Source of the DNA: Nitriliruptorales bacterium
GTDB lineage: Bacteria > Actinomycetota > Nitriliruptoria > Nitriliruptorales > Nitriliruptoraceae
Assembly: GCA_041591915.1 (NCBI GenBank)
Contig: JBFHRB010000001.1
Span: forward strand, 1-53,959
Length of the DNA stretch: 53,959 nucleotides
Reading direction: 5' to 3'
Part shown: in pieces, positions 2,061 to 49,655 of the stretch
Layout of the letters: every line of letters begins with the position of its first letter
How positions within the stretch are numbered: the stretch's first letter is position 1
Translations under genes and position numbers: made by a program
Notes under the pieces: model-generated
Told to the model about the DNA's origin: nothing
The model's database searches: none
Seen by the model: only the letters and a program-made list of their open reading frames with translations

Positions 2061-2087
2061 CCCCGTGGTGGTCGCGCGCCGCAACCT

Positions 2088-5933: not shown

Positions 5934-5935
5934 GC

Positions 5936-7144: not shown

Positions 7145-7162
7145 CCGGCTGCCTCCCTGTCC

Positions 7163-7175
7163 TGACACCTCGTCA
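7163..7175. promoter_or_regulatory. Palindromic operator-like site, N5 variant (TGACACCTCGTCA)
   Basis: Context is CCTGACACCTCGTCAGG. It lies in the 5' untranslated region of ACAD-2, between the putative -10 (TAGCGT on the minus strand, 7190-7195) and the GGGAGG/GTG 7144 start. Confidence 0.5.
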
Positions 7176-7202
7176 GGTCGTCCGCCCCGACGCTAGCATG
7201 AC

Positions 7203-7216
7203 TGACACACGCGTCA
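7203..7216. promoter_or_regulatory. Palindromic operator-like site, TGAC-N6-GTCA class (TGACACACGCGTCA)
   Basis: Lies in the divergent gap between ACAD-2 (-) and ACAD-3 (+). TAGCAT at 7194-7199 sits just upstream on the plus strand. The flank GTCAGGGTCGTCGC is identical to that of the site at 21806. Confidence 0.7.
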
Positions 7217-7252
7217 GGGTCGTCGCGTGCGGGTTCGATGTGGAGGGCGCGC

Positions 7253-8350
7253 GTGGATTTCCAGTTCTCGGAGGAGCAGCAGGCGTTCCGCCAGTCGGTC
7301 CGCGACGCCCTCGAGAAGGAGTTCCCGCCGGACCGTGTCCGCGAACTCGCCGACACCGACGCCGGGATCAGCGCCGAGGCGTGGTCGATGTTCGCGTCGC
7401 TCGGCTGGACCGGCGTCCTCGTTCCCGAGGAGCACGGCGGCCTCGGACTCGGCCTCGTCGATGCCATCATCCTCATGGAGGAGATGGGTCGGCTCCCACT
7501 GCCTGGGCCCTTCTGGTCCTCGGCTGGCCTGGCGACGCTCGCCGCGGGGCGTTTCGGCGCCCAGGAGCTCCTGGCCGGACTCGCCGACGGCACGAGCCGT
7601 GGCACGGTCGCCCTCGACGAGGGCGGCTCGCGTGACCCGCTCGACGCCATCCGGACGACCGCCGTGGCCGCGGGTGGCACGTGGACGCTCGACGGCGTGA
7701 AGCTGGCGGTGCCCGACGGGCACACCGCGGACTGGGCGATCGTGGTCGCACACACGCCCGACGGCCTCGGCGCCTTCCTGGTCGAGGAGCCCCATGCGAG
7801 CCTGCAGGCCACCATCGACCCGAGCCGCAAGCTCGCGCGCCTCGAGCTGCGCGGCACGCCTGCGCGGCAGCTGGACGCGGACGAGGGCGCGATCCGCCGC
7901 CTGCTGGACGATGCGGCCGTGCTCCTGGCGGCCGAGTCGGTCGGCGCGGCCGAGCGTGCGCTCGAGCTCGCGGTCGAGTACTCGCATCAGCGGGTGCAGT
8001 TCGGCCGGCCGATCGGCGCGTTCCAGGCCATGAAGCACCTTGCCGCCGAGATGCTGCAGCGCGTCGAGCTCGCCCGTGTGGGCGTCCACTACGCCGCGTG
8101 GACCTCGGACGAGGATGCGGACGACCGCGAGCGCGCGGCCGCCATCGCTGCGTCCTGGTCGGCCGAGGCCGCCATCGGCGTGACCGGCGACAGCATCCAG
8201 ATCCACGGCGGTGTCGGGTTCACGTGGGACGCGCACGTGCAGCTGCACTTCAAGCGGGCCAAGGTCAACGACGTGCTGCTGGGCCAGCAGGGGTGGCATC
8301 GCCAGCGCGTCGCCGACCTCGTGCTCGGCCCGGTGGGAGCAACCGCCTGA
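7253..8350 (+). CDS. Acyl-CoA dehydrogenase family protein (ACAD-3, short type; possible partner subunit of ACAD-2)
   Basis: Starts at GTG 7253 (VDFQFSEEQQAFRQ), preceded by GGAGGG. The track start 7238 is also possible. Contains IQIHGGVGFTWDAHVQLHFKRAK, a C-terminal ACAD motif. Confidence 0.8.
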   Translation: MDFQFSEEQQAFRQSVRDALEKEFPPDRVRELADTDAGISAEAWSMFASLGWTGVLVPEEHGGLGLGLVDAIILMEEMGRLPLPGPFWSSAGLATLAAGRFGAQELLAGLADGTSRGTVALDEGGSRDPLDAIRTTAVAAGGTWTLDGVKLAVPDGHTADWAIVVAHTPDGLGAFLVEEPHASLQATIDPSRKLARLELRGTPARQLDADEGAIRRLLDDAAVLLAAESVGAAERALELAVEYSHQRVQFGRPIGAFQAMKHLAAEMLQRVELARVGVHYAAWTSDEDADDRERAAAIAASWSAEAAIGVTGDSIQIHGGVGFTWDAHVQLHFKRAKVNDVLLGQQGWHRQRVADLVLGPVGATA

Positions 8351-8405
8351 CCCGCGGCCGCTTCTCGGCTACAAGGACGTGGCGCGGCAGCCGGAGGAGG
8401 GCGCC

Positions 8406-9749
8406 ATGGCCACGATCTTCCAGCCCGACCTCGAGACGATGGATCCGGCCGACCGCGCCGACCTGCAGTCGCGCCGGCTGGTGGCCCTGCTCCAACGGCT
8501 GATCCAGCTCGACTCGCCCTACTGGCGCGGCAAGCTCGACGGGGTCGATGTCGGGTCCGTCCGCGGCGTCGACGACCTGCACCAGCTCCCGTTCACGGTC
8601 AAGGCCGAGCTGCGCGACACGTACCCATTCGGGATGCTCGCCGTGCCGATGCACGACGTCGTGCGCGTACACGCCTCGTCCGGGACCTCGGGCAAGCCCA
8701 CGGTGGTCGCCTACACGGCCGGCGACATCGAGGTGTTCGCCGAGGTCAACGCGAGGTCCATCGCCTGCGCCGGAGGCACGGCCGACGACATCATCCACGT
8801 CGCCTACGGCTACGGCCTGTTCACCGGCGGCCTCGGCCTGCACTACGGCGTGGAGCGGCTCGGGGCGTGTGCCGTCCCCGCGTCGGGTGGCAACACGGGC
8901 CTGCAGGTGCAGCTGCTCGAGGACCTCGGCGCCGTCGGGCTGTGCTCGACGCCCTCCTTCGCGATGCTGCTCGCCGAGCGGGCGGAGGCCGATGGCCTCA
9001 TGGATCGGCTGGGTGTGCGGTACGGGATCTTCGGCGCGGAGCCGTGGTCGCAGGCGTACCGCGAGCAGCTGGAGGCCCACTGGTCCGCAGCCACCGGGTC
9101 GTTCGACGCCTGTGACATCTACGGCCTCAGCGAGATCATCGGCCCCGGCGTCGCGATGGAGGCGCGCGAGTCCAAGGGCGCGCTGTTCGTGTTCGACGAC
9201 CACTTCCTGCCCGAGATCGTCGACCCCGACACGGGGGACCCGGTGGCGGAGGGCGAGTACGGCGAGCTGGTGCTCACCACGCTCACCAAGGAGGCGCTGC
9301 CGATCCTGCGCTACCGGACGGGTGACGTGACGCGGTTCGTCGACGATGCCTGCCCGTCGGGGCGCACCCATCGGCGGATCGAGCGCCTCCAGGGTCGCGT
9401 CGACGACATGCTGGTCATCCGGGGTGTGAACGTCTTCCCGCGTGAGATCGAGGCCGTTCTGCTCGACGACCCGGCCGTGGGCGCGCACTACGGGATCGTC
9501 GTCGACCGGCGCGAGACGATGCCCCAGCTGCAGGTGCGGGCCGAGCTGCGGAGCTCGGCCGACGTCGGCCGCGTCCATGAGCTCCGTGACGTGCTGCAGG
9601 CACGCCTGCTCGAACGCTGCCGCCTCCGCATCGACGTCACGCTCGTCCCGCCGGGCGGGTTCCCGCGACAGGAGGTCGGCAAGGCGCGCCGGGTCTTCGC
9701 GTGGGAGCCCGGCGCGGACGACCCCTGTCCCGTGGACGCGACGGCCTAG
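8406..9749 (+). CDS. Phenylacetate-CoA ligase (PaaK) family protein
   Basis: Starts at ATG 8406 (MATIFQPDLETMD), preceded by GGAGGAGGG. Motifs: LPFTVKAELRDTYPFG and HASSGTSGKPTVV. The upstream 65 aa of the track ORF overlap the ACAD-3 3' end and were rejected. Confidence 0.85.
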   Translation: MATIFQPDLETMDPADRADLQSRRLVALLQRLIQLDSPYWRGKLDGVDVGSVRGVDDLHQLPFTVKAELRDTYPFGMLAVPMHDVVRVHASSGTSGKPTVVAYTAGDIEVFAEVNARSIACAGGTADDIIHVAYGYGLFTGGLGLHYGVERLGACAVPASGGNTGLQVQLLEDLGAVGLCSTPSFAMLLAERAEADGLMDRLGVRYGIFGAEPWSQAYREQLEAHWSAATGSFDACDIYGLSEIIGPGVAMEARESKGALFVFDDHFLPEIVDPDTGDPVAEGEYGELVLTTLTKEALPILRYRTGDVTRFVDDACPSGRTHRRIERLQGRVDDMLVIRGVNVFPREIEAVLLDDPAVGAHYGIVVDRRETMPQLQVRAELRSSADVGRVHELRDVLQARLLERCRLRIDVTLVPPGGFPRQEVGKARRVFAWEPGADDPCPVDATA

Positions 9750-11810: not shown

Positions 11811-12737
11811 CTACTGCTGGACCGCGGGCGCCGCAGCGCCGAACGGCGGAACGCTGGGGTCGTGCTCGGCGAACAGCTGCTTCATGGCGTCGGTCAGCTC
11901 CTCGGCCTGCCACGCCCGACCGCCGGCCTGGACCTGCTCGACGACCTTCCAGCCGGACGCGAGCTCGATCGAGTCGCCCCAGACGACGAAGTTCTGGCCG
12001 CTGACGTGGCCGGCCTCGTCGGACGCGAGCCACGCGACGAGGGGCGAGACGTTCTCCGGGGCCACGGCCGACCACTCGCCGTCACCGACGTTGGCCAGGG
12101 GGCCCATGAGGTTCTCGGTCATGCGGGTGAGTGCGCGCGGGGAGATGGCGTTGACCGTCACGCCGATGCGCGAGAGCTCGCGCCCCATCGTGATGGTCAG
12201 CGCGGCGATACCCGCCTTGGCGGCCGAGTAGTTCGACTGGCCGACGTTGCCGTAGAGCCCTGCCTCGGACGAGGTGTTGATGATCCGGCCGCTGACGGCC
12301 TCACCGGCCTTGGACCGGGCGCGCCAGTGGCGTGCCGCGAAGTGGGAGGGGGCGAAGTGGCCCTTGAGGTGGACGTTGATGACCGCGTCCCAGTCCTCCT
12401 CGCTGATGTTCCACGACATGCGGTCGCGCAGGATCCCGGCGTTGTTCACGACGATGTCGAGCTGGCCCCACTCCTCGATCGCCTGCGTCACGAGGCTCTC
12501 GGCACCCGCGAAGCTCGCGATGTCGTCGAAGTTCGCGACGGCCTCGCCGCCGGCGGCGTTGATCTCGTTGGCGACCGCCTCGGCCGGCCGCTCGCCGGTG
12601 TCCGAGCCGTCGAGGGCCACGCCGATGTCGTTGACCACGACGCGCGCGCCGTGTCGGGCGAGCTCGAGCGCGTGGGCCCGGCCGAGGCCTGCGCCGGCCC
12701 CCGTCACGATCGCGATCTTGCCGTCCAGCAGCCCCAT
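11811..12737 (-). CDS. SDR-family 3-hydroxyacyl-CoA dehydrogenase-like protein (resembles the Hsd4A / Rv3502c N-terminal domain)
   Basis: GKIAIVTGAGAGLGRAHALELARHGARVVVNDIG, IVVNNAGILRDRM and NYSAAKAGI closely resemble the mycobacterial Hsd4A-type SDR. This comparison is from memory and was not aligned. Confidence 0.8.
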   Translation of the reverse strand: MGLLDGKIAIVTGAGAGLGRAHALELARHGARVVVNDIGVALDGSDTGERPAEAVANEINAAGGEAVANFDDIASFAGAESLVTQAIEEWGQLDIVVNNAGILRDRMSWNISEEDWDAVINVHLKGHFAPSHFAARHWRARSKAGEAVSGRIINTSSEAGLYGNVGQSNYSAAKAGIAALTITMGRELSRIGVTVNAISPRALTRMTENLMGPLANVGDGEWSAVAPENVSPLVAWLASDEAGHVSGQNFVVWGDSIELASGWKVVEQVQAGGRAWQAEELTDAMKQLFAEHDPSVPPFGAAAPAVQQ

Positions 12738-12762
12738 GGGGTTCCCCTCGTTCAGCAGTTTC

Positions 12763-12775
12763 TGACGGACCGTCA
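12763..12775. promoter_or_regulatory. Palindromic operator-like site, N5 variant (TGACGGACCGTCA)
   Basis: Context is TTTCTGACGGACCGTCAGGTTT, 26 nt upstream of the SDR start codon (12737). Confidence 0.5.
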
Positions 12776-12799
12776 GGTTTCTATCAGCCGGGCCCGGGC

Positions 12800-12820
12800 G
12801 CCGCCAACCCCGTGGGCGGC
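12800..12820. terminator. Short GC hairpin downstream of the TIM-barrel gene (weak terminator candidate)
   Basis: GCCGCC-aaccccgtg-GGCGGC. It lies 11 nt past the stop of gene 12831-13577 and separates that gene from the SDR promoter. Confidence 0.3.
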
Positions 12821-12830
12821 CGGCTCCGAG

Positions 12831-24341: not shown

Positions 24342-25538
24342 TCACCGCCAGGCGGGCCCGGACGGCGCCCGGCCAGCGGCCACGCGCGAGCCGACGAAGT
24401 TGCGCTGCACCTCGACCGTGCCGGCCCCGATGTTGAGGCCACGGATGTCGCGGTAGATGCGCTCGACCGGGAACTCGCGCGAGTAGCCGTAGCCGCCGAG
24501 GAGCTGGATGGCCTCGTCGCACACGTACTTGGCGGCGAGGTTCGCCTTCGCCTTCGCCATGCCGGTCTCGAGGGCGGGCGGCGTGCCGTGCACGTCGGCC
24601 AGGGCGACCGCCCGGTAGAGGAGCAACCGGGCGCTCTCGAGCTCGATCGCCATGTCGGCGAACTTCCACTGCAGGCCCTGCAGATCGCGCAGCGCCTTGC
24701 CGCCGATGACCCGGTCGTTGGCGTAGGCGACGGCGTGCTCGAGCGCTGAGTGGGCCGCCCCGACGCACATCGCGGCGTTGCCGCAGCGCTCGTGGTTGAG
24801 GTGGGCCAGCAGCGTCCGGAAGGCCGCCTCGTCGTCGCCATGGACGACGACGTCGTCGGGCGTGACCACGACGTCGTCGAAGACGAGCTCCGCCTCCGTG
24901 ACGCCCTTGAGGCCCATCTTCTTGTGCGTGCCGGCGATGCTGACGCCGTCCGCCGAGAGGTCGACGACCACCGAGCCGATGCCCTTGGCGCCCTGGCTCC
25001 CAGGGAAGCGCGTCCACACCAGGCACGCGTCGGCCTTGTGCCCGCCCGTGACGTAGTTCTTGTAGGCGTTGAGCCGCCACGTTCCGTCGCCGGCGTCGGT
25101 CATCGACGCACGCATCTCCATCACGGCGGAGCCGGCCTCGGCCTCCGTGATGCCGAGGCAGAACAGCGACTCGCCGGAGGCGGCGCGTGGGAGCCACCGG
25201 TCCTTGAGCACGTCGGTGCCGAGGTGCTCGATCGCGCGGGGTGCGCCGTTGTAGACGAGCTGCAGCAGGATGGCGCTCGACACGTCCCCGTGTGCGAGCT
25301 CCTCGAGGACGATGGTCGACTCGACGTCGCCCATGCCCATGCCGCCCCAACGCTCCCCGGTGGTGATGCCGTTGAGGCCGGCCTGCTGGTAGGCCTTCCA
25401 CGCCTCCTCGGGGAAGCGTTCGTGCTCGTCCCAGTCAGCGGCGCGCGGGGCGAGGTCGCGCTCGGCCACCTCGCGAGCCAGCGCTCGCAGGGCGGCCTGG
25501 TCCTCGGTGTCGGCGAGCAGGTCGCGTCCGGCGTCCAC
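24342..25538 (-). CDS. Acyl-CoA dehydrogenase (ACAD-6, canonical homotetramer-like type)
   Basis: Motifs: GITEAEAGSAV, GYGYSREFPVERIYRDIRG and GAGTVEVQRN. The GTG start is preceded by GAGGAG. Confidence 0.9.
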   Translation of the reverse strand: MDAGRDLLADTEDQAALRALAREVAERDLAPRAADWDEHERFPEEAWKAYQQAGLNGITTGERWGGMGMGDVESTIVLEELAHGDVSSAILLQLVYNGAPRAIEHLGTDVLKDRWLPRAASGESLFCLGITEAEAGSAVMEMRASMTDAGDGTWRLNAYKNYVTGGHKADACLVWTRFPGSQGAKGIGSVVVDLSADGVSIAGTHKKMGLKGVTEAELVFDDVVVTPDDVVVHGDDEAAFRTLLAHLNHERCGNAAMCVGAAHSALEHAVAYANDRVIGGKALRDLQGLQWKFADMAIELESARLLLYRAVALADVHGTPPALETGMAKAKANLAAKYVCDEAIQLLGGYGYSREFPVERIYRDIRGLNIGAGTVEVQRNFVGSRVAAGRAPSGPAWR

Positions 25539-25575
25539 GCGGGCTCCTCGATGTCGCGTGCGTGGCCCTAGCCTA

Positions 25576-25589
25576 TGACACGCGTGTCA
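25576..25589. promoter_or_regulatory. Palindromic operator-like site, perfect 14-mer TGACACGCGTGTCA
   Basis: Lies in the divergent gap between ACAD-6 (-) and the amidohydrolase (+). TAGCCT at 25569-25574 is immediately upstream on the plus strand; its reverse complement TAGGCT region serves the minus strand. Confidence 0.75.
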
Positions 25590-29793: not shown

Positions 29794-29809
29794 GCCCCTG
29801 CGCCTAGGC

Positions 29810-29823
29810 TGACGCGCACGTCA
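29810..29823. promoter_or_regulatory. Palindromic operator-like site, TGAC-N6-GTCA class (TGACGCGCACGTCA)
   Basis: TAGGCT at 29805-29810 overlaps the first base of the site. GGGAGG and GTG 29838 follow. Confidence 0.7.
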
Positions 29824-29837
29824 GGGAGGCGCGTCGA

Positions 29838-31619
29838 GTGCAGGACACGGAGCCGGGGGTGGCAACCCGCGATGCCCCCGCGCCCGGCAAGGGCCCGATC
29901 CCGTTCGGGTCGGTTGCCGAGCTGCTGCGACGCAACGTCGACGCGCGGGCGGACGAGCCGTTCGTCCTCTTCGGCGACGAGGTCGCCTTCACGCATCGCG
30001 ACTACGCGGAGGCGTGCCGCCGCTGGGCGACCGTCCTCGCCGACCTCGCCGGCACCGAGGCGCCACGTCACGTCGGGCTGCTGCTGCAGAACACGCCGAC
30101 CTACCTCGCCATCCTCGGCGGGGCCGCGCTGGCAGGTGTGACCGTCGTCGGCCTCAACGACACGCGCCACGGAACCGAGCTGCGACGCGACATCGAGCAC
30201 ACGGACTGCCGGGCCGTGATCGTCGAGCCGGCGACCGCTGCGCTCCTCGCCGACCTCGACCTCGACGTGCCCGTGCTGACCACGTGGGCGTTCGCCAGCG
30301 ATGCCGCGCCAGAGGCCGCGGCACGCGCCCCCGCCGCCGGCTCGGACACCGATGTCGACGCGCTCGTCGCCGCGGCCGACCCTGTCGACCTCGAAACCCC
30401 GCCGCCCGACCTCGCGACCACCTGGTGCCTCGTCCTCACCTCCGGATCGACCAGCGCCCCCAAGGCCGTCATCTGCTCGCAGCGACGGCTGCTGCAGTCG
30501 GGGGAGCGGCTACGGATGCTGATCGGCGTCACGCCGGCGGACACGGCCTACGTGTCGATGCCGCTGTTCCACTCGAACTCGATCATGGTCGGGTTCCTGC
30601 CGGCGCTGATCGCGGGTGCGTCGATCGGGCTGGCCCGCAGGTTCACGGCGTCCGGATGGCTGCCAGACGTCCGCCGCTACGGGGCGACCTACTGGAACTA
30701 CACCGGCCAGCCCCTGAGCTACATCCTCGCGACACCGGAGGCCGACGACGACGCCGACAACAGCATCCGCCGGGTCTTCGGCAACGAGGCCTCGCCCGAG
30801 TCGCAGACGCGGTTCGCGGCGCGCTTCGGCTGTGAGGTCGTCGACATGTTCGGGGCGTCCGAGGGCGGCGTCGGGATCATCCCGTCACCCGACACCCCGC
30901 CCGGCGCGCTGGGCAAGCCCCCGCCGAACGTGCTCGTCCTCGACCAGACGGGCACGCCGTGCCCGACCGCCGAGTTCGACGAGCACGGCCGGGTCATCAA
31001 CCTGATGGACTGCATCGGCGAGATCGTCAACATCGAGGGCGCGGGCCCGTTCGAGGGCTACTACCGCAACGACGAGGCCAATGCCGTCGCCACCCGCTTC
31101 GGCTACTACTGGACCGGCGACCTCGGCTACGTCGACCGCGACGGGTGGCTCTACTTCGCCGGACGCGACGAGTCGTGGATCCGCGTCGGCGGCGAGAACT
31201 TCACGCCCGGACCGATCGAGCGCGTCGTCTCCCGCCACCCCGACGTGCTCGTGTCCACCGTGTACGGCGTGCCCGACGCGGACGCCGGCGACCAGGTCGT
31301 CGCGGCGATCCAGCTCGGCGACGGTGCGGAGTTCGACGGGGCCGGTTTCGCGACGTGGCTCGACGCGCAGGGCGACCTCAGCGCCACCTGGTCACCGCGC
31401 TACGTCCGGGTCTCGGACGAGCTCCCTCGGACCGCGACCAACAAGGTCCTGACGCGCCAGCTCCGCACCGAGGGCCTGCACCTGGATCGCATCGGGGCGG
31501 ACGAGGTGTACGTGCGCGACCGCGGTGCCGACGCCTTCCGTCCGTTCACGGCCGACGACGAGGCCGCGCTGGCCGCCGAGTTCGCTGCGGCGGGCCGCAG
31601 CCGGTTCTGGGAGCGGTAG
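29838..31619 (+). CDS. Long-chain acyl-CoA synthetase (FadD-like)
   Basis: Motifs: LVLTSGSTSAPKAV and YYWTGDLGYVDRDGWLYFAGRDESWIRVGGENF. Length is 593 aa. Confidence 0.9.
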   Translation: MQDTEPGVATRDAPAPGKGPIPFGSVAELLRRNVDARADEPFVLFGDEVAFTHRDYAEACRRWATVLADLAGTEAPRHVGLLLQNTPTYLAILGGAALAGVTVVGLNDTRHGTELRRDIEHTDCRAVIVEPATAALLADLDLDVPVLTTWAFASDAAPEAAARAPAAGSDTDVDALVAAADPVDLETPPPDLATTWCLVLTSGSTSAPKAVICSQRRLLQSGERLRMLIGVTPADTAYVSMPLFHSNSIMVGFLPALIAGASIGLARRFTASGWLPDVRRYGATYWNYTGQPLSYILATPEADDDADNSIRRVFGNEASPESQTRFAARFGCEVVDMFGASEGGVGIIPSPDTPPGALGKPPPNVLVLDQTGTPCPTAEFDEHGRVINLMDCIGEIVNIEGAGPFEGYYRNDEANAVATRFGYYWTGDLGYVDRDGWLYFAGRDESWIRVGGENFTPGPIERVVSRHPDVLVSTVYGVPDADAGDQVVAAIQLGDGAEFDGAGFATWLDAQGDLSATWSPRYVRVSDELPRTATNKVLTRQLRTEGLHLDRIGADEVYVRDRGADAFRPFTADDEAALAAEFAAAGRSRFWER

Positions 31620-41675: not shown

Positions 41676-44471
41676 TCACGGGTCGAGCACACATCCGCGT
41701 TGGGTCCCCAGCGCCTCCAGCCCGCGCAGGTCCGGGGGGCGGAAGTAGACGGGCCCGCCGAGCGGGCTGGGGGCCATCAGCCCCTCGGCGTGGTCGAGCC
41801 CGATGAGGTGGCCGAACTCGTGGAGGATCACCTCACCCCAGTTCACGTCGGCACCGTCGTAGCCGGGCGCGACCTGCCCGATCGCGTTCGCGTTGAACCG
41901 GACCAGTGCCGTCGTGATGACCTGCTGCCCGCGCGCGTTCGTCCACCGTCGGTTGGTGACCCGCCCGAGCACCCCGCTCCCGGTGAAGGGCCCGAGGTCC
42001 GTCCAGCCCACCCAGACGGGCGGGTAGCGGCCGGGGTCGTCGCGGTCGCCGGGGTTGGCCGGCTCGGGCTCCGTCGTCGTGCCGTCGAAGACCAGGTCGA
42101 TGCCGGTCAGCTGCTCGACCCGTCGAGCCCCCTCCAGCAGGTCGTCGAGCGCGGTCGGGTAGGCGCCGGACACGTTGGCGACCCAGTGCAGCGGTCGACA
42201 CGGGTTCCAGCGGGCGGCGGTCGCGTCGGGGTTGATGGTGATCACCCGAAAGGCGAAGAGCCCCTCGCGGCCCAGCGTTCCCTCGAGCACCGGGTCGATG
42301 ACGGCCGTTCCACCCAGGAGCACGAGGCGACCGGGGTCGTGCTGCGTCGCCAGCGCGAAGCGCGCGCCCTCGAGCAGCCACTCGTCCACCAGGGTGACGG
42401 GTGCGCGCATCAGGCCCGCGAGCGCGCCACCGGCCAGCGCGTCCGGGAACGAGCGTCCCGTCGCGAGGAAGGCGACCGTGCTCGAGGGAACCGATGTCCG
42501 GACGATCTCCGAGGACGTGGCGTACCGGCTCGGGCCGGACACCCGCGTGACCCATGCCCCGCCCTGGCCGAGCTGGGTCGCCACACCCTCCGACACCGCC
42601 GCAACGCCACCGAGAACGACGATCGTCGTCGGGCGCAGGCGCGCGAGCTCGTCGGCGGTGGCCGCGGGGATGGAGTCCCGCGTGACGAGCAGGATCGGAG
42701 CGCCGTCCGCAGCGGCGGCCGGGACGCCCGACAGCGCGTCCGGGAAGTTCTCGCCCGTGGCCACGTAGACGGTCTCGACGGCCGTCGGGAAGAAGGCCCG
42801 CGAGATGTCCGCCGCCGTCGCGTAGCGGTTCGCGCCCGAGCGACGTTCGACGGGCTCCGTGGCATAGCCAGCGAGCTGCGTGGCCACGGCCGCTGACACG
42901 GCAGCCGTGCCGCCGAGCACGACGATGCGGCGTGGGCGCAACCGCTGCAGCTCGGTGGCCGTCGACGACGGGATCGAGTCCGGCCGGACCAGCAGCACCG
43001 GCCCGTCGACCAGCGACGCCACGGGTCCGCCCGCGAGCGCGTCCGGGAAGGCCTCGCCCGTCGCGACGAGGACCGTGTCGACGCCGGGCGCGAAGCCCAG
43101 TTCGGAGACGGCCGCGGCCGTGGCATAGCGGTCGTTGCCGGAGGCGCGGGTCATCGTGACGGGGTCGGCGCCGTCGCCGGCGGCGAGGTCGCACCACGGG
43201 TGGCCGTCCCGGTCGCCCGATGGGGTCAGCCGCGCGACCACGGGCTGGCGAACCCCACTGGAGATGCGGGTGCCGGCCACGAGCACGTCGGCCTCCGGCG
43301 CATCGCTGACGGCGGTCGGGAAGACGAGGGCCGTCGCGTCGCGGGAGCGCGGGGTGAACGTCGCCATCTCCCCGCCGGCGAATCCCGGATGGCGTGCCAG
43401 CGTGGGGGTCAGGCGGTGGACCTCGAGGTCCCGGCGGTCGCTGAGCGAGAACAGGGTGTTGAGGCCGACGATGCCGCCGTCGGCGGCGAACACGACATCC
43501 TCGAGGCCGCGCGTGGTGTCGGTGGTCGCCGTCGCCACGCCGTCGGGGCCGTTCGTCGCGTCAGGGGCCCCGTCGAGGCGGAGGCGCAGCGTGGCCACGC
43601 CGACCGCATCGGTCGTCGCGAGGACCGTCACCGCATCCGCGTCGAGGCGCAGGTCCGTGATCCCGGTCGAGGCGAGGGTCGCGTCGCTACGACCGTCGCC
43701 GTCGAACGACGTGACCGGGGCGCCATCGGCGCCGAGGAGCCAGACCGTCGCCGAGCTCCCGTCCGCCCCGGCCGCCGCGATCCCTGTCGCTCCCGATGCG
43801 ACCGCACCGACCGCCGGGCTCGACGGCAGGTCGACGTGGCCGTCGCCGTCGAAGGTCGTGTCGAGGGCGCCGCCGGCGGTGATCCGGCTCAGGCGTTGCA
43901 GGCCGGTCGTGTCGTCGACGGTCGCGACGAGCAGGCCCCCGCTGGGGTGGGGGGCCGCGGCGCGCAGCCGGTGGCCGGTGAGCGACAGCGGCGTGCCGGC
44001 GGGCCGGCCGTCGGCGCCGACACGCAGCACCTGCACCGTCGCATCGCCGGTCGTCGTCGTGTCGGCCACCGCCCACGTGTCGGTGGCGGCCCCGGTCGCG
44101 ACGAGCTCGACGACGTCGACAGCGTCCGTGCCGAGGTCGCTCACCCGGCCCGTGATGCCGACCGCGGCAGCGGGTGCGCCATCGGCGTCGAGCCGCCAGA
44201 CGACCAGGCGATCACGTCCGTCCGTCGCCCGCTGGACGTCCGCGACGACCGTCCCGCCGTCACCGTGCGAGAGCACCGTCGTCCGCGCGAGGGTGCCGCG
44301 CTCGCCGGCATCGAGGAAGGCCGCGCCGCAGAAGCCGAACAGGATCGGGCGGGGGTCCGTGGCGGCCGCGGACGGCGCGACGGGTGCGATGACCGTGGTG
44401 GCGGCGATGAGCAGCGCGACGACGGCGCTGGACAGCGACCTCGACCGGGCGTGTGGACGTCTGTGTGACAT
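41676..44471 (-). CDS. Secreted multidomain metzincin-type zinc metalloprotease with three cell-wall-binding (CWB2-like) repeats
   Basis: Starts at ATG 44471 with a Sec-type signal (MSHRRPHARSRSLSSAVVALLIAATTVIAPVAPSAAA). The N-terminal region is repetitive (FDGDG motifs). There are three xxRYATAA...FPDAL...VLGG repeats. The C-terminal motif is HEFGHLIGLDH. Confidence 0.8.
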   Translation of the reverse strand: MSHRRPHARSRSLSSAVVALLIAATTVIAPVAPSAAATDPRPILFGFCGAAFLDAGERGTLARTTVLSHGDGGTVVADVQRATDGRDRLVVWRLDADGAPAAAVGITGRVSDLGTDAVDVVELVATGAATDTWAVADTTTTGDATVQVLRVGADGRPAGTPLSLTGHRLRAAAPHPSGGLLVATVDDTTGLQRLSRITAGGALDTTFDGDGHVDLPSSPAVGAVASGATGIAAAGADGSSATVWLLGADGAPVTSFDGDGRSDATLASTGITDLRLDADAVTVLATTDAVGVATLRLRLDGAPDATNGPDGVATATTDTTRGLEDVVFAADGGIVGLNTLFSLSDRRDLEVHRLTPTLARHPGFAGGEMATFTPRSRDATALVFPTAVSDAPEADVLVAGTRISSGVRQPVVARLTPSGDRDGHPWCDLAAGDGADPVTMTRASGNDRYATAAAVSELGFAPGVDTVLVATGEAFPDALAGGPVASLVDGPVLLVRPDSIPSSTATELQRLRPRRIVVLGGTAAVSAAVATQLAGYATEPVERRSGANRYATAADISRAFFPTAVETVYVATGENFPDALSGVPAAAADGAPILLVTRDSIPAATADELARLRPTTIVVLGGVAAVSEGVATQLGQGGAWVTRVSGPSRYATSSEIVRTSVPSSTVAFLATGRSFPDALAGGALAGLMRAPVTLVDEWLLEGARFALATQHDPGRLVLLGGTAVIDPVLEGTLGREGLFAFRVITINPDATAARWNPCRPLHWVANVSGAYPTALDDLLEGARRVEQLTGIDLVFDGTTTEPEPANPGDRDDPGRYPPVWVGWTDLGPFTGSGVLGRVTNRRWTNARGQQVITTALVRFNANAIGQVAPGYDGADVNWGEVILHEFGHLIGLDHAEGLMAPSPLGGPVYFRPPDLRGLEALGTQRGCVLDP

Positions 44472-44508
44472 CTGGGAAGTAGATGTCCACGCGGCAAGAG
44501 ATGTCCAC
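44452..44508. repeat. Nested direct/inverted decamer repeats (GTGGACATCT family) spanning the protease start codon
   Basis: The minus strand reads GTGGACATCT-N8-GTGGACATCT-N7-AGATGTCACA-N2-AGACGTCCAC. The ATG lies inside the third unit. Confidence 0.6.
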
Positions 44509-44519
44509 ACAGTGATGGG

Positions 44520-45323
44520 TCAGCGTCCCTCGAAGCGCGCGTCGCGCTTCTCGCGGAAGGCGGCCATGCCCTCCTGGACGTCGCGGGTGCCGGCCACGAG
44601 CGCCTGGAAGTGGCGCTCGCGCTCGAGGAGGTGTCCGAGGTCGGATTCGAACGACGAGTTGAGGAGCTGCTTGTTGAGCCCGATGGCCCGGGTCGCCCCG
44701 GCGGCGAGCTCGACGGCCAGGGCGTCGGCCTCCTGCGCGAGCTCGTCGGCCGATGCGTACGCGCGCAGCGCGAGACCCTCGCGGACGGCGTCGGCTCCCA
44801 CGATCGAGCCCCCGCGCAGCAGGAGCTCCTTCGCGCGTGGCATGCCCACCAGGCGCGGCAGGAGGTAGGCGCCGCCCGCGTCGGCCACCAGCCCCCACCT
44901 CGCGAAGTTCCAGATGAACCGCGTGGCGTCGCACGCCAGGACGAAGTCGCAGGCCAGTGCGAGGTGTGCACCCGGTCCCACCGCGGCCCCGTTCACGGCC
45001 GCGATGGTCGGCTTGTCGAGCTCCCAGAGCTCGGTCACGATGGCCTGCAGGCCGCGGCGCAGCGCCTCCGAGGTGGTGCGTGGGTCGAAGTCCTTCGACC
45101 CGACGTCCTTCAGGGTCGACGCGGTCAGGTCCATGCCCGCGCAGAAGGCGTCCCCCGCGCCCGTGAGCAGCAGCGCGCGGACGCCGCGATCGACCCGCGC
45201 CTCGCGCACCGCGGCCAGCAACGCCTCGCGCATGCCCGGCGTGATCGCGTTCTTGGCGTCCGGCCGGTCGAGCGTGATCCGGCAGACGTGATCGCCACCC
45301 ACCTCAACCCGGACGCCCGTCAT
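44520..45323 (-). CDS. Enoyl-CoA hydratase/isomerase (crotonase) family protein
   Basis: Motifs: ITLDRPDAKNAI and LLLTGAGDAFCAGMDL. Confidence 0.9.
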   Translation of the reverse strand: MTGVRVEVGGDHVCRITLDRPDAKNAITPGMREALLAAVREARVDRGVRALLLTGAGDAFCAGMDLTASTLKDVGSKDFDPRTTSEALRRGLQAIVTELWELDKPTIAAVNGAAVGPGAHLALACDFVLACDATRFIWNFARWGLVADAGGAYLLPRLVGMPRAKELLLRGGSIVGADAVREGLALRAYASADELAQEADALAVELAAGATRAIGLNKQLLNSSFESDLGHLLERERHFQALVAGTRDVQEGMAAFREKRDARFEGR

Positions 45324-45324
45324 C

Positions 45325-46500
45325 TCAGCCCTCGTTCGTCGTGAGGATGTTCACCACGCTGACGCCGGACCCGCGGCCCCCCACGTTGTGCTGGAGCGCG
45401 AACCCGTTGCGGGTCGCGACCTGGCGGTCGTCGGCCTCGCCGCGCAGCTGCCAGTAGCACTCGGTGAGCTGGGCGACGCCCGTCGCGCCGATCGGGTGCC
45501 CCTTGGCGATCAGGCCGCCGCTGGGGTTCACCGGGAGGCGCCCGTCGAGCGCGGTCTCGCCGGCGAGCGTCGCGTGGCCGCCCTTGCCCTTCTCGACGAA
45601 CCCGAGGTCCTCGATGTCGAGGATCTCCGTGATGGTGAAGCAGTCGTGGACCTCGGCCATGTCGATGTCGCCCGGCCCGACGCCTGCCATCGCGTAGGCC
45701 CGCTTGGCGGCATGGACGGTGGCCGGCAGCTCGACGAACGACTGCTTCTCGTGCAGCGCCGGATGGTCGGTCGCGACGCCGAAGCCGGCGACGTAGACCG
45801 GCGCGTCCGTGAACTCCTTCGCCCGGTCGGCCCGGACGAGCACCATCGCGGCGGCCCCGTCGGTCTGGGGGCAGCAGTCGAGGAGGTGCAGCGGTTCGCA
45901 CACGAGCGGCGAGCTGAGGTAGCGGTCGAGGTCGATCTCCTGCTGGAAGTGCGCGTACGGGTCGAGCGTCGCGTTGTGGCGGTTCTTCATCGCGACGGCG
46001 CCGAGCATCTCGCGGGTCGTGCCGAAGTCGTGCATGTGGCGGGTCGCGAACGGCGCGAACAGCACGGGTGCCGTCTCCCCGCGGTTGTAGATCGGGTGGC
46101 CCGAGGCGGCGCGGGCGAGCAGGCCCTCCTCGGCCGACTTGTCACGCATCTTCTCGACGCCGATGACGAGGGCGATGTCGTACACACCGCTCGCGACGGT
46201 CATCGCGGCGATGCGGAAGGCGTCGGAGCCCGACGGGCAGGCGTTCTCCACGCGCGTGCACGGGACGCCGTTGAGGCCGATGGCGCTGGGGATGGTGTTG
46301 CCGCCGATGCCCTCCTGGCCCCACAGCGTCCCGCGCTGGGTCGAGAGGATGACGTTGTCGATGAGTGCGGGGTCGAACCCGTGGTCGACGCTGCCGACCG
46401 CGGCGTCGAACGCCTGCTTCGCGAGCTGCTCGTAGCTGCGATCGAAGAGCTCACCGAATCGGATCAGCCCGGCGCCGACGACGGCGACCTGGTTCCACAT
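45325..46500 (-). CDS. Thiolase-fold protein, SCP-x / lipid-transfer-protein (Ltp)-type
   Basis: Starts at ATG 46500 (MWNQVAVVGAG). Motifs: ENACPSGSDAF (Cys nucleophile region), NPSGGLIAKGHPIGATG and HNVGG. The 789-aa track ORF is an artefactual extension. Confidence 0.85.
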   Translation of the reverse strand: MWNQVAVVGAGLIRFGELFDRSYEQLAKQAFDAAVGSVDHGFDPALIDNVILSTQRGTLWGQEGIGGNTIPSAIGLNGVPCTRVENACPSGSDAFRIAAMTVASGVYDIALVIGVEKMRDKSAEEGLLARAASGHPIYNRGETAPVLFAPFATRHMHDFGTTREMLGAVAMKNRHNATLDPYAHFQQEIDLDRYLSSPLVCEPLHLLDCCPQTDGAAAMVLVRADRAKEFTDAPVYVAGFGVATDHPALHEKQSFVELPATVHAAKRAYAMAGVGPGDIDMAEVHDCFTITEILDIEDLGFVEKGKGGHATLAGETALDGRLPVNPSGGLIAKGHPIGATGVAQLTECYWQLRGEADDRQVATRNGFALQHNVGGRGSGVSVVNILTTNEG

Positions 46501-47900
46501 CAGCCCTGTCCTCTCGTCGCGGCCGGGGCCGCCTTGTAGCCGTAGACCGGCGCCCCACGTTCGCGGGCGTAGCGACGCAGGACGAGCTCGATCCCACCGT
46601 CGATCTGGAACGCCGTGCCCGCGAGCCCCTGCAGTTGCAGGCGCGTGCCGTCGACGAGGTCCGCGATGACGACCGGCAAGGGCGCCTCGAACGGCGCCGG
46701 CATGGTCTGGTTCACCACGAACGTCACGACCGTCCCCGCGCGCGGGAGATCGACGATCTCGAACGACGAGCCGCCACATCCGGTGCAGGCCGGGTGCACC
46801 GATGGGGGCGTCGACACGGTCCCGCAGTCGGTGCATCGGGCGCCGTGCAGGCTGAGCAGCTCGGCTCCGCCCCGCACGAAGCCCGCACCCCCCGGCGGGA
46901 CGCCCATCTGGACGGGCTCGCCCGCCGGGCTGAGCTGGCCGCGGGCACGCAGCACGGTGGCGTAGGAGGCCGGGCGCCCCTCGGCGGTGACGGCGTCGAG
47001 CAGGTCGGCGCCGGGCACCGCGCCGTTGACGTCGATCGTCAGGGTCACGGTCTCGCCGCCGCCATAGGCGACGAGGCCCACGGTCCCTCCGCCGCCGAGG
47101 GCCGCGATGGCCCCGAGCAGCGGGGCCGCGGCGCCGGTGTCGCCGAACGCGGCGTACGGGCCGGCGGACGGCGGCTCGCCGGCGCCGACCTCCTTGGCGA
47201 TCAGGCGGCCGAGGCGCCCGTCGGGGTCGGGCAGTGACCACGCGCTGATCGGGGTGGCCTCGTGCAGCGCCCGGGCCGCCCCCACCACCGACGGGACGAA
47301 GACCTCCTCGCGGAAGAGGCGCCCGTCGTACGCGTCGCGGGTCGCGGCCTCGTCGCTGCCGCGGTAGCGATCGAGCACGGGGCGCAGCCTCGTCGTCGCC
47401 GCACCCAGGATCGCAGGCCCGTCCCCGGCCTCGAGGACGAACGCCGACCCGGCGGCGCCGGCGCGGTGCTCGTGCCGCGAGCCCAGGCCCGGCAGGACGT
47501 CGTCCGAGACCACGACGAGCGCGCGGGAGCAGCGCCCGGCGGCGATGGCATCGGAGGCGGCGAGCAGGGCCTGCACCCCGCACGTGTCCGTCCCCGAAAC
47601 GATGGCTCCCACGACCGTGTCCGGGAGTCGGAGCGTCGCCGACAGGTAGGCGCGGGACGGGCCCTGGCCGAACGGGGGTGTGGGCGTGCCCCACCAGAGG
47701 CCGTCGATCGAACCCGGGTCGCTGCCGGCGGCCTCGAGGGCACGGACGGCGGCCTGCCAGGCCAGCGTGAGCGTGTCCTCGTCCGCCGCGCAGGCGGCGA
47801 ACCGACCTCGCGCGCTTGTTCCCCAGGCGTCTGCGACGTCACTCGCCTCGCAGCGCAGGCTCCCGGCGGCGGCACCCACCCCCGTTATCGCGACCGGCAT
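46500..47900 (-). CDS. Fusion protein: HMG-CoA synthase/KAS-III-like thiolase-fold domain + DUF35 (Zn-ribbon/OB-fold) domain
   Basis: The N-terminal roughly 300 aa are thiolase-fold-like (VSGTDTCGVQALLAASDAI). The C-terminus has the CTDCG...CTGCG zinc ribbon followed by an OB-like segment (GTVVTFVVNQ). The stop overlaps the thiolase ATG by 1 nt. Confidence 0.65.
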   Translation of the reverse strand: MPVAITGVGAAAGSLRCEASDVADAWGTSARGRFAACAADEDTLTLAWQAAVRALEAAGSDPGSIDGLWWGTPTPPFGQGPSRAYLSATLRLPDTVVGAIVSGTDTCGVQALLAASDAIAAGRCSRALVVVSDDVLPGLGSRHEHRAGAAGSAFVLEAGDGPAILGAATTRLRPVLDRYRGSDEAATRDAYDGRLFREEVFVPSVVGAARALHEATPISAWSLPDPDGRLGRLIAKEVGAGEPPSAGPYAAFGDTGAAAPLLGAIAALGGGGTVGLVAYGGGETVTLTIDVNGAVPGADLLDAVTAEGRPASYATVLRARGQLSPAGEPVQMGVPPGGAGFVRGGAELLSLHGARCTDCGTVSTPPSVHPACTGCGGSSFEIVDLPRAGTVVTFVVNQTMPAPFEAPLPVVIADLVDGTRLQLQGLAGTAFQIDGGIELVLRRYARERGAPVYGYKAAPAATRGQG

Positions 47901-47925
47901 CGGCGCCTCCCTCCCGGACGAACCC

Positions 47926-47939
47926 TGACTCTAGCGTCA
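47926..47939. promoter_or_regulatory. Palindromic operator-like site (TGACTCTAGCGTCA) within the 26-nt inverted repeat GAACCCTGAC-TCTAGC-GTCAGGGTTC
   Basis: Lies upstream of the fusion gene (start 47900). The minus-strand TAGAGT -10-like hexamer sits in the centre of the palindrome. GGGAGGGAGG precedes the ATG. Confidence 0.65.
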
Positions 47940-47945
47940 GGGTTC

Positions 47946-47958
47946 TGACGGGGTGTCA
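47946..47958. promoter_or_regulatory. Palindromic operator-like site, N5 variant (TGACGGGGTGTCA)
   Basis: Lies 6 nt from the 47926 site, so the two form a tandem pair in a 77-nt gap. Confidence 0.45.
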
Positions 47959-47977: not shown

Positions 47978-49204
47978 TCAGCGGAGGTCGAACGCGACCT
48001 TGACCGCCCCCGTCTCGTGAGCGCGCAGGATGGTCGTGAACGCCTCGCGCCAGTCCTCGAGCCGGTAGGTGTGGGTCAGCATGCCGTCGAGGTCGATCCG
48101 CCCGGCACGGACGAGGTCGAGGTAGTGCTGCATGGCGTGCTGGCGGAGCCCGTCCACCTCCTCGATCCCGAACGCGTTGCTGCCGACCAGCCGCAGCTCC
48201 TTGAAGTACCACGGGGTCCATTCGAAGCGCCCCGGCGTGGCCACCCCGGTCAGCACCATGGTCCCGCGGGGCCGGGTGATCCGCACGCCCACCTCGAGGG
48301 TCTCCGTCGAGGCGACGGTGTCGTAGACGACGTCGGCGCCCCCGGGCTGCAGCATCGGGGCGCCGAGGAACGGGGTCCGGACGCGTGCTCCGGTTGCGTC
48401 CCCCACGGCGGCCACGATGGCCTCTGCCGACGTGCTGGTGATCGCGGTCGCTCCGAGCCGCTGGGCCAGCGCGGCCTGGTGGGGGTGCTGGCAGACGGCG
48501 AGCACCTGGACGCCGGGATGGAGCGCACGCAGGATCTCGAGCGTCGTCGTGCCGAGGGCCCCGATGCCGTAGACCACCGCCGTCCCACCGTCGGGCGGCG
48601 GGTTCCGCGTCACGGCGTGCAGCGACACCGAGAAGGGATCGGCCAGGACGGCCACCTCGTCGGGCACGTCGTCCGGCAGGGGGATGCACATGGAGGCGTG
48701 TGCCGGGAGGAACTCGCCGAAGCCGCCCGGCGCGTCGGCCGAGTTGCCCACGTGGATGCCCGGCTGCAGCCGGCCCTCGGCGAAGTTGTGGCACAGCGAC
48801 AGGTCGCCGTCGGCGCAGGCCGGGCACACGGGCGCGATGCCCCGCGGGGCGCAGGACAGCCAGGGGTTGAGCAGGACGCGCTGGCCGATGTCGAGGCCGC
48901 TGGCGTCCGCGCCGACCTCGGCGACCTCGGCGACGACCTCGTGCCCGAGCACCTGGGGGAACGAGATGAGTGCCGTCATCGCGTTGTCGGGATCGCCGTC
49001 CGCCAGCACCTGCTTGGTGTCGGAGCCGCAGATCCCGGTCATACGCGTCCGCAGCCGCACCCAGTCGGGGCCGGGGAGCTCCCCGGGCTCGACGTCCTGC
49101 AGGGCCATGGGCGTGACCGCCAGGCGGCGCTCGCCCTCCGGGAGGGTCGGATCGACCTCGTCGGGCTGGACGGCCGGGGCCACCCCGTAGACCAGTGCTC
49201 GCAC
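47978..49204 (-). CDS. Zinc-dependent alcohol dehydrogenase (MDR family)
   Basis: Starts at GTG 49204 (VRALVYGV); 49207 is an alternative start. Motifs: GICGSDTK, GHEVVAEV and a structural-Zn Cys cluster (CAPRGIAPVCPACADGDLSLC). The upstream 117 aa of the track ORF were rejected. Confidence 0.85.
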   Translation of the reverse strand: MRALVYGVAPAVQPDEVDPTLPEGERRLAVTPMALQDVEPGELPGPDWVRLRTRMTGICGSDTKQVLADGDPDNAMTALISFPQVLGHEVVAEVAEVGADASGLDIGQRVLLNPWLSCAPRGIAPVCPACADGDLSLCHNFAEGRLQPGIHVGNSADAPGGFGEFLPAHASMCIPLPDDVPDEVAVLADPFSVSLHAVTRNPPPDGGTAVVYGIGALGTTTLEILRALHPGVQVLAVCQHPHQAALAQRLGATAITSTSAEAIVAAVGDATGARVRTPFLGAPMLQPGGADVVYDTVASTETLEVGVRITRPRGTMVLTGVATPGRFEWTPWYFKELRLVGSNAFGIEEVDGLRQHAMQHYLDLVRAGRIDLDGMLTHTYRLEDWREAFTTILRAHETGAVKVAFDLR

Positions 49205-49259
49205 CACGTTCGCTCCGGTCGGCGTAAGGTCGCGGCAGGGCCGCAGGAAAGGTGTCGCA

Positions 49260-49655
49260 ATGAGCTCGGTCGAGGACCGCGAGTCGATCCGCGAGACGCT
49301 CGCTCGATACTGCCACAGCATCGACGACGGACGCTGGGACGAGTTCGAGTCGCTCTGGACGGGCGACGCGAGCATGGAGTTCGCGGGCCGCCACGTCGAG
49401 GGCCGTGGCGAGATCCTCACGTTCATGCAGAAGGCGATGCCCGAGCACATGCGCGGCCGCCACCTGACGACGAACTCCGTCATCGAGATCGACCACGACC
49501 GGGCGTACGTGACGAGCGACTTCCTGTGGGTCGGGCCGGACGGCGACGGCGGCACGAGGCAGACGACGGGCCGCTATCGCGACGTGCTGACCTGTGACGC
49601 CGAGCGGTGCTGGTCCTTCGCCCGCCGCCACATCGAGCTGGATGGCGGCAGATGA
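49260..49655 (+). CDS. SnoaL-like / NTF2-fold protein
   Basis: 131 aa. Has the typical N-terminal helix (DRESIRETLARYCHSIDDGRWDEFESLW). Confidence 0.7.
   Translation: MSSVEDRESIRETLARYCHSIDDGRWDEFESLWTGDASMEFAGRHVEGRGEILTFMQKAMPEHMRGRHLTTNSVIEIDHDRAYVTSDFLWVGPDGDGGTRQTTGRYRDVLTCDAERCWSFARRHIELDGGR

Follow-up and report, generated by a model that had tools for sequence, protein, structure and literature searches.

A pseudo-HMG-CoA synthase fused to DUF35 as the probable partner of a thiolase in a proposed beta-oxidation-type operon of a Nitriliruptorales bacterium

The stretch of Nitriliruptorales DNA analysed here (53,959 nucleotides, hereafter the window) carries a gene that fuses an HMG-CoA synthase (HMGS)-like domain to a C-terminal DUF35 module, next to genes for a thiolase and a crotonase. 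Taken as a whole, the evidence is best explained, with a probability that we put at roughly 0.7, by a fusion pseudoenzyme that partners the sole catalytic thiolase of a beta-oxidation-type operon. An enzyme of this type, PfACAT/HMGS-DUF35 of Pseudomonas fluorescens, was assayed in 2026 and only cleaves acetoacetyl-CoA (Liao et al., Nat Commun 2026, PMC12960953). The find is therefore real but not new, and the pseudo-HMGS::DUF35 protein reveals no new mechanism.

All three genes lie on the minus strand. The fusion gene (46500..47900; 466 aa plus stop) was defined by its open reading frame, domain matches, an AlphaFold2 model and full-length homologues. It is followed by a gene for an SCP2/archaeal-ACAT-type thiolase (45325..46500; 391 aa), assigned from PRK06064, PDB 6esq_A and its motifs, and by one for a PaaG-like crotonase-fold enzyme (44520..45323; 267 aa; Pfam ECH_1, 3.3e-51). 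At a TGATG junction the fusion stop TGA (46502-46500) shares its A with the thiolase ATG (46500-46498), and one G lies between the thiolase TGA and the crotonase ATG, which thus starts 1 nt past the thiolase stop; the ORF coordinates agree with the junctions claimed by an earlier, sequence-only reading of this DNA. A Shine-Dalgarno-like stretch, GGGAGGGAGG (47906..47915, minus strand), was read from the sequence 5 nt before the fusion ATG.

The HMGS/PhlA-like thiolase-fold domain covers about residues 1-295 (47016..47900, minus strand), as placed by a phmmer alignment to 6esq_I and by Foldseek. The DUF35 module takes up residues 339-466 (46503..46886, minus strand) and comprises, by the Pfam matches and the secondary structure of the AlphaFold2 model, an N-terminal helix, a Cys4 zinc ribbon (353-381) and an OB fold (383-459). 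In the profile searches that had been proposed as a check on the domains, residues 2-283 resembled archaeal HMG-CoA synthase (NCBIfam PRK04262, E 1.5e-20) at 73.5 bits against a cut-off of 244, and the score for TIGR00748 was 40.8 bits against a cut-off of 353. Pfam placed zf-ChsH2 (PF12172) on residues 353-381 and OB_ChsH2_C (PF01796) on 383-422, both as weak matches; the four cysteines of the CxxC...CxxC ribbon (C356, C359, C372 and C375) show little or no variation across 63 homologues. The same Pfam search detected no MaoC domain in the fusion and, down to E 0.1, no match to PF08541, the HMGS probe used in genome mining (PMC12960953).

Among PDB sequences, the N-terminal domain best matches PhlA (9skh_A, 1.4e-10), and the DUF35 part matches the DUF35 of ChsH2 (6ok1_B, 8e-08), BbsA (7pxp_A) and the DUF35 protein of 6ESQ (6esq_E). 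AlphaFold2 placed both domains in one confident model (pLDDT 93.9, pTM 0.94), for which the best Foldseek matches were the HMGCS of 6ESQ, PhlA (5M3K, 9SKH) and MucA (9VBO), with target TM values of 0.81-0.84. The N-terminal fold is that of HMGCS, PhlA and MucA in three solved tripartite complexes. Together the domain and PDB matches bear out the three-part logic of HMGS-like domain, DUF35 and SCP-x-type thiolase that had been proposed from the sequence.

The catalytic residues of the HMGS fold are missing from the fusion. A competent HMGCS, with 6esq_I as the reference, uses Glu82, Cys114, His238 and Asn270; in the phmmer alignment the positions of this E-C-H-N tetrad are occupied by P73, D105, P224 and D254. 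Alignment column counts found the tetrad kept in 0 of 63 diverse fused homologues, whereas R180 is among the residues conserved throughout the family. The cysteine that the sequence-only reading had pointed to is C107 (in TDTCG), which lies two residues past the canonical nucleophile position at D105 and is Ala in most homologues. Judged by its residues, the HMGS-like domain of the fusion is catalytically dead, and the proposal of a second active site with channelling finds no support. That reading had also held that it would fail if the domain had no catalytic residues and the fusion belonged to a known family, which is essentially what was found: the tetrad is replaced, and the family has been assayed. 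Additionally, a true HMGCS is absent from the assembly, a MAG of 87.5% completeness. A second HMGS-like match, on contig C210, proved to be an ordinary FabH adjoining FabG.

The neighbouring thiolase, on the other hand, retains a full set of motifs: NACPSGS (Cys88), VHDCFT (H285) and KGHP (H335) are present, and the corresponding CxS, HDxF and GHx elements (C88, H285-D-C-F and G-H335-P) are invariant in 65 thiolase orthologues. It scores 420.5 bits against NCBIfam PRK06064 (cut-off 420) and 387 against the equivalog NF053570 (cut-off 600). In the PDB its best match and closest solved relative is the archaeal ACAT 6esq_A (6.3e-79), far ahead of Ltp2 (6ok1_A, 2.3e-35) and PhlC (1.6e-30); with the HMGCS of 6ESQ as the best fold match for the fusion, this supports the suspected kinship to the archaeal thiolase/HMGCS/DUF35 complex. 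The earlier view that the chemistry could not be read from the sequence stands only in part, since Cys88, HDCF and GHP narrow it to the pattern of the thiolysis-only PfACAT/HMGS-DUF35. Across the same loci, identity is 71-81% for the thiolase and 51-60% for the fusion; the thiolase is thus far more conserved, which is what one would expect if it is the catalyst and the fusion its scaffold. The fusion is most likely the non-catalytic partner of the adjoining thiolase.

The best PDB matches of the crotonase are PaaG of Thermus (6slb, 3hrx) and of E. coli (4fzw_C). In alignments to 3hrx and 6slb, its D148 falls on Thermus PaaG Asp136, a residue with a catalytic role (PMC7497051). Both hydratase Glu positions are non-acidic, the first being an invariant His, and all of 47 orthologues share H120, F140 and D148. 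The protein thus resembles PaaG, a 1,2-epoxyphenylacetyl-CoA / delta3,delta2-enoyl-CoA isomerase, in sharing the catalytic Asp and in missing the hydratase Glu; it differs in that invariant His and in a score against TIGR02280 (PaaG) of 197 bits, below the cut-off of 345.15. Another gene of the same genome is a better candidate for PaaG. We consider the crotonase more likely to be a double-bond isomerase than a classical hydratase. As both hydratase Glu residues are missing, the operon alone does not account for an ordinary hydratase reaction.

A 26-nt inverted repeat with the core CCTGAC-N6-GTCAGG (47920..47945) separates the fusion ATG from the dehydrogenase gene upstream and is adjoined by a shorter palindrome, TGAC-N5-GTCA (47946..47958), also read from the sequence. 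The core recurs at nine gene-start or intergenic sites of the window, with one weaker intragenic match, and is common to the operons of the acyl-CoA dehydrogenase (ACAD), ligase and hydantoinase type. The palindrome at 47920..47945 is a likely repressor operator. The gene upstream of it encodes an MDR dehydrogenase whose profile resembles threonine/polyol dehydrogenases. As an operon member or enoyl reductase this gene was rejected: its profile is generic, the operator lies in between, and it is not conserved, as just one of the 80 loci has it next to the fusion, with 25% identity.

These loci came from a search built on 13 close sequences of the fusion, in which neighbour clusters were counted only where Pfam, or tblastn queried with proteins of the window, bore them out, since antisense shadow ORFs, typical of high-GC DNA, otherwise enter such clusters. 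Nearly all of the 80 loci had the fusion-thiolase pair, and 47 had the crotonase. An SDR gene, homologous to that at 11811-12830 of the window, came next in 40 loci, and an ACAD gene, homologous to that at 24342-25586, was nearby in 12, in most of them directly upstream. The order fusion-thiolase-crotonase, with SDR and ACAD in part, is conserved mainly in Acidimicrobiia MAGs.

Based on these results, we propose that the fusion, thiolase and crotonase genes make up one operon, which serves the C-C bond-cleaving end of a beta-oxidation-type pathway. The dead HMGS-like domain and the fused DUF35 zinc-ribbon/OB clamp would dock the neighbouring thiolase, much as HMGCS and DUF35 hold the archaeal thiolase and PhlA and PhlB hold PhlC; a physical complex of the fusion with the thiolase is the best inference. 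The thiolase alone would be catalytic, with Cys88 being acylated and the histidines of HDCF and GHP assisting, and would split a 3-oxoacyl-CoA using CoA. The dead domain probably aids assembly and helps to form the interfacial chamber for CoA and the acyl group. The PaaG-like crotonase would act on an enoyl-CoA of the same pathway, and expression is probably under a repressor that binds the palindrome found also at the other acyl-CoA genes of the window.

More tentatively, the pair may serve specifically as the thiolase of a conserved module under repressor control, made up of ACAD, the fusion, the thiolase, the PaaG-like isomerase and SDR, which would break down one certain acyl-CoA of an unsaturated, branched or cyclic kind. 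In that case the empty synthase cavity and DUF35 would have been kept because they shape an acyl/CoA chamber for a bulky substrate. The module would have been acquired sporadically by the lineage of the window, as it was found in 2 of the 143 genomes from the window's class and the closest relatives lie in Acidimicrobiia. Such a module would not be the evolutionary intermediate without a pathway as which the P. fluorescens example was treated (PMC12960953); we regard this extended proposal as possible but less likely than not.

A condensing complex, in which the thiolase runs in the Claisen direction, for example in CoA-dependent chain elongation with the upstream MDR protein perhaps as reductase, is conceivable because thiolases are reversible, and a thiolase/DUF35 route of fatty-acid synthesis has been proposed for archaea (bioRxiv 10.1101/2024.07.05.601840). 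However, the loss of the tetrad leaves no exergonic HMGS reaction that could drive condensation, the P. fluorescens complex made no acetoacetyl-CoA from acetyl-CoA (PMC12960953), and the conserved neighbours of the fusion include ACAD, a catabolic enzyme. The MDR gene, although directly upstream, is the poorly conserved one behind the operator. We consider this direction unlikely.

The match of the DUF35 part to ChsH2, together with the steroid-type acyl-CoA ligase and ACAD genes of the window and the shared operator, would fit a retro-aldol lyase of the Ltp2-ChsH2(DUF35) or Sal-Shy kind, cleaving a 3-hydroxyacyl-CoA side chain such as that of a steroid. Ltp2 is not known to have the nucleophilic Cys. 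Here Cys88 and the HDxF and GHx motifs are intact, Ltp2 is distant from the thiolase, and in the known aldolases DUF35 is joined to a MaoC hydratase, not to an HMGS-like domain, all of which makes a lyase quite improbable.

We give very little credence to a Friedel-Crafts C-acyltransferase of the PhlACB/MucABC type, which would acetylate phenolic or tetramic-acid acceptors as part of secondary metabolism. The dead domain does resemble PhlA, with a common GDTGAA motif and Asp for the HMGS Asn, and the fold matches both PhlA and MucA. Those acyltransferases, however, have lost HDxF from the thiolase-like subunit (PMC12960953), whereas the HDCF found here is invariant and the thiolase is far nearer to archaeal ACAT than to PhlC. 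Furthermore, a scan of the window ORFs, covering all but a few gaps, turned up no PKS/NRPS domains, and there are none among the conserved neighbours in relatives, which are SDR and ACAD.

Finally, that an assembly error or frameshift has united two separate genes is next to impossible, since hundreds of independent full-length fused homologues from many sources exist and one confident model spans both domains; nothing was found in its favour. The search returned 880 homologue matches; 120 of 120 among the matches listed were full-length (458-506 aa), and many further, more distant fused representatives were also found. In the window's own class the family is patchy (2 of 143 genomes). The fusion has also been mentioned for Streptomyces albus, as cited in PMC11522927. 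Mycobacterium nebraskense is a cultured carrier of an orthologue, which could make the question experimentally testable.

The fused proteins are widely annotated as hydroxymethylglutaryl-CoA synthase, a label that can cause false mevalonate-pathway calls in Actinomycetota, Chloroflexota, Bacillota and Deltaproteobacteria; by its catalytic positions, no fused member examined can make HMG-CoA. The conserved context of PaaG-like crotonase, SDR, ACAD and shared operator provides a catabolic setting for the enzyme class, one that is missing from its one biochemical study.

Several known systems share parts of this arrangement. BbsAB, the benzoylsuccinyl-CoA thiolase, and Ltp2-ChsH2, the steroid aldolase, similarly pair DUF35 with an SCP2-type thiolase-fold partner in catabolism, but they have no HMGS-like domain and their sequences are less close; BbsA is a stand-alone DUF35 protein, and the DUF35 of ChsH2 is fused to its hydratase. 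PhlACB of Pseudomonas protegens (5M3K) and MucABC of Streptococcus macacae (9VBO) combine a dead HMGS-like subunit, also with Asp for Asn, with DUF35 and a thiolase-like catalytic subunit, and MucB has no activity unless its partners are present (PMC12960953). Their thiolase-like subunits are without HDxF and acylate small non-CoA acceptors in biosynthetic clusters, whereas HDCF is retained here in a catabolic context.

The archaeal thiolase/HMGCS/DUF35 complex (6ESQ) has the same three modules. Its HMGCS is active and channels acetoacetyl-CoA, and its DUF35 is a separate protein; here, with a dead synthase site and a fused DUF35, two-step channelling of that kind is impossible. The P. fluorescens complex has the likeness, in architecture and motifs only, of an HMGS-like domain with C-terminal DUF35, a lost tetrad, a thiolase with Cys, HDxF and GHx, and no PKS/NRPS. 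It belongs to another phylum, and what sets the present locus apart from it is the PaaG-like crotonase and the shared operator within an acyl-CoA catabolic island.

On the minus strand of the window (GC content about 72%), the three genes run head to tail: the fusion (46500-47900, 466 aa), the thiolase (45325-46500, 391 aa) and a crotonase-fold protein (44520-45323, 267 aa). The source genome was assembled from a metagenome; its 346 contigs total 3.2 Mb, and its completeness is 87.5%. A Shine-Dalgarno sequence, GGGAGGGAGG, precedes the fusion ATG. The fusion/thiolase junction reads TGATG, with one base common to stop and start, and the thiolase/crotonase junction reads TGA-G-ATG, confirming the gene boundaries and junctions proposed in the sequence-only reading. 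Upstream, a Zn-dependent dehydrogenase gene (47978-49555, minus strand) is not kept beside the fusion in relatives; its longest ORF encodes 525 aa, and since the Pfam domains begin only at residue 162, its true start is probably much later.

Residues 2-283 of the fusion match archaeal HMG-CoA synthase models with scores far under the cut-offs (PRK04262, 73.5 bits against 244; TIGR00748, 40.8 against 353), and residues 350-456 weakly match BbsA and two DUF35 Pfam families. By sequence, the nearest solved structure to the N-terminal part is PhlA-type 9skh_A (1.4e-10), with 6esq_I, the HMGCS subunit in the Methanothermococcus complex, at 5.3e-08; those nearest the C-terminal part are the ChsH2 DUF35, BbsA and archaeal DUF35. 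An AlphaFold2 model built from 63 homologues was confident (pLDDT 93.9, pTM 0.94), with lower confidence in the linker near residues 320-340, and Foldseek ranked the 6ESQ HMGCS, PhlA (5M3K, 5MG5, 9SKH) and MucA (9VBO) highest, at target TM values of 0.81-0.84. A homologue search gave 880 matches at E <= 1e-05, of which the 120 listed are all full length (458-506 aa) and 54-62% identical to the fusion. These fused homologues rule out an artefact of two joined genes. An exhaustive search recovered many fused representatives, with identity down to about 25%; the named ones belong to Chloroflexota, Bacillota, Clostridia and Deltaproteobacteria. The assembly itself holds at least six more DUF35 OB-fold matches (contigs C39, C37, C142, C253 and C111), two of them within long open frames (593 and 573 aa), which might encode further DUF35 fusions.

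The catalytic tetrad of archaeal HMGCS is E82, C114, H238 and N270 (Liao et al., PMC12960953). In the fusion, P73, D105, P224 and D254 occupy these positions when residues are counted along the phmmer alignment. Across an alignment of 63 diverse fused sequences, the column of the Glu holds T/S/A/C/P/V/L, the Cys column L/T/P/A and others but never Cys, the His column a single His and the Asn column mostly Asp, such that the full tetrad is kept in none of the 63. The synthase site of the HMGS-like domain is thus predicted to be dead. The cysteine to which the sequence-only reading had drawn attention, C107 in TDTCG, sits two residues past where the nucleophile should be, and 40 of the 63 sequences have Ala there; the zinc-ribbon cysteines, by contrast, vary little or not at all. 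JGI and several NCBI records (P0007-P0122 and P0273-P0293 in our set) name tetrad-less fusions "hydroxymethylglutaryl-CoA synthase", probably a systematic misannotation. The only other HMGS-model match in this genome (contig C210, L003:163-1931) belongs to an ordinary FabH with FabG after it, and the 87.5% complete assembly yielded no true HMG-CoA synthase.

The thiolase barely reaches the PRK06064 cut-off (420.5 bits against 420). Its best solved relative is the 6ESQ archaeal acetoacetyl-CoA thiolase (6.3e-79), followed by weaker matches to BbsB (2.2e-48), Ltp2 (2.3e-35) and PhlC (1.6e-30). Its CxS (C88), HDCF (H285) and GHP (H335) motifs are intact, and each is invariant in 65 orthologues from related loci. 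Over the same loci, identity to the window's copy is 71-81% for the thiolase versus 51-60% for the fusion, a gap that fits a constrained catalyst and a freer scaffold.

The best structural relatives of the third protein are Thermus and E. coli PaaG. His120 and Phe140 stand where a hydratase has its two Glu, and Asp148 aligns on Asp136 of Thermus PaaG, which is catalytic (PMC7497051). All three residues are invariant across 47 orthologues, and the protein is, from its residues, predicted not to be a classical hydratase. Its score falls under the PaaG cut-off, and a better PaaG candidate is present elsewhere in the genome. In the PaaJ/PaaG pairing, thiolysis of a 3-oxo-5-enoyl-CoA gives a 3-enoyl-CoA that needs isomerisation; a gene order of thiolase and then delta3,delta2-type isomerase is reminiscent of this pairing and offers a lead.

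Gene order is conserved across 80 related loci, most of them from Acidimicrobiia MAGs, with Mycobacterium nebraskense also represented. Wherever the DNA extends far enough, the thiolase comes after the fusion, and the crotonase follows in 47 of the 80. An SDR homologous to that at 11811-12830 occurs in 40/80, directly after the crotonase where inspected, and an ACAD homologous to that at 24342-25586 lies near the fusion in 12/80, mostly directly before it; in the window both are dispersed. The cultured M. nebraskense DSM 44803 (NZ_LQPH01000081.1, locus L007) carries the fusion (57% identity) and then the thiolase (73%), with no crotonase after them. Distribution of the fusion is patchy: with this query it turned up in only one other genome among 143 of the window's class and in 2/301 sampled genomes of the phylum, absences being provisional because only some candidates were scored per genome, and the close subfamily occurs in about 240 species genomes.

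A palindrome with the core CCTGAC-N6-GTCAGG has ten matches in the window, where about five are expected by chance with two mismatches allowed. Nine are at gene starts or in intergenic gaps (CTGAC-N6-GTCAG at 2086, 7201, 13623, 21804, 25574, 29808, 41637, 47924 and 53927), at genes for ACADs (the ACAD pairs included), acyl-CoA ligases, a cupin, an amidohydrolase, a hydantoinase-type operon and the fusion operon, whose copy precedes the fusion ATG by 20 nt. The positions of the sites, and the near-perfect copies among them, speak for a genuine regulon. One copy is at the open-frame start of an acyl-CoA ligase (29808-31619, plus strand) nearest to the steroid-22-oyl-CoA synthetase CasI and the FadD1/FadD17 models (521 bits, under the cut-off of 900). 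Ligases at 678-2315 (minus strand) and 8184-9749 (plus strand) both have a PaaK-type C-terminal domain (AMP-binding_C_2), which together with the PaaG-like crotonase hints at CoA activation of aryl or unusual acids in the island. A 944-aa ORF (41676-44510, minus strand), which has CWB2 repeats and a region resembling a beta-propeller, separates the crotonase from the HyuB-methyltransferase-HyuA operon. Since one related locus (L071) has a HyuB homologue (5431-7254, 65% identity) about 1.6 kb after the crotonase, the fusion and Hyu operons may be neighbours elsewhere too.

We propose that the fusion would dock the thiolase via its DUF35 clamp and dead synthase domain and help to shape the CoA/acyl chamber. 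The thiolase would use Cys88 to cleave a 3-oxoacyl-CoA by thiolysis, the PaaG-like enzyme of that pathway would shift or hydrate a double bond, and ACAD and SDR genes of the common regulon would supply oxidative steps. We infer complex formation, reaction direction and substrate alike. Of the channelled complex suggested by the sequence-only reading, the complex of fusion and thiolase probably stands, while a second catalytic site and channelling fall with the lost tetrad. In practice, what matters most is that such proteins are widely misannotated as HMG-CoA synthase and that the context is catabolic.

The fusion architecture was previously known. DUF35 fusions to thiolase-superfamily domains were reported in 2010, PMC11522927 cites a Streptomyces albus HMGCS with DUF35 fused at its C-terminus, and in 2026 a study of MucABC, a streptococcal complex, used mining of bacterial genomes to choose a Pseudomonas fluorescens locus of fused HMGS-DUF35 and ACAT (PMC12960953). 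The Phl/Muc acyltransferases share the fold ranked highest for the fusion; however, the Friedel-Crafts enzymes PhlACB and MucABC (MucB alone is inactive) are told apart by loss of HDxF (PMC12960953), and the window's thiolase keeps HDCF, so we reject this assignment. An archaeal-type synthase complex, to which the thiolase's best solved relative belongs, is rejected since the HMGS-like domain lacks the tetrad. An Ltp2-type aldolase is dismissed on the thiolase's match to Ltp2 (2.3e-35) versus the 6ESQ thiolase (6.3e-79). In the P. fluorescens complex, the HMGS part likewise lacks E-C-H-N while Cys, HDxF and GHx are all retained in the ACAT; the complex forms no HMG-CoA and no acetoacetyl-CoA, and cleaves acetoacetyl-CoA in a reaction that needs the His of HDxF (PMC12960953). 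With the same fused HMGS-DUF35, tetrad loss and ACAT motifs, the window's fusion/thiolase pair is, by architecture and motif pattern, a predicted member of the P. fluorescens type.
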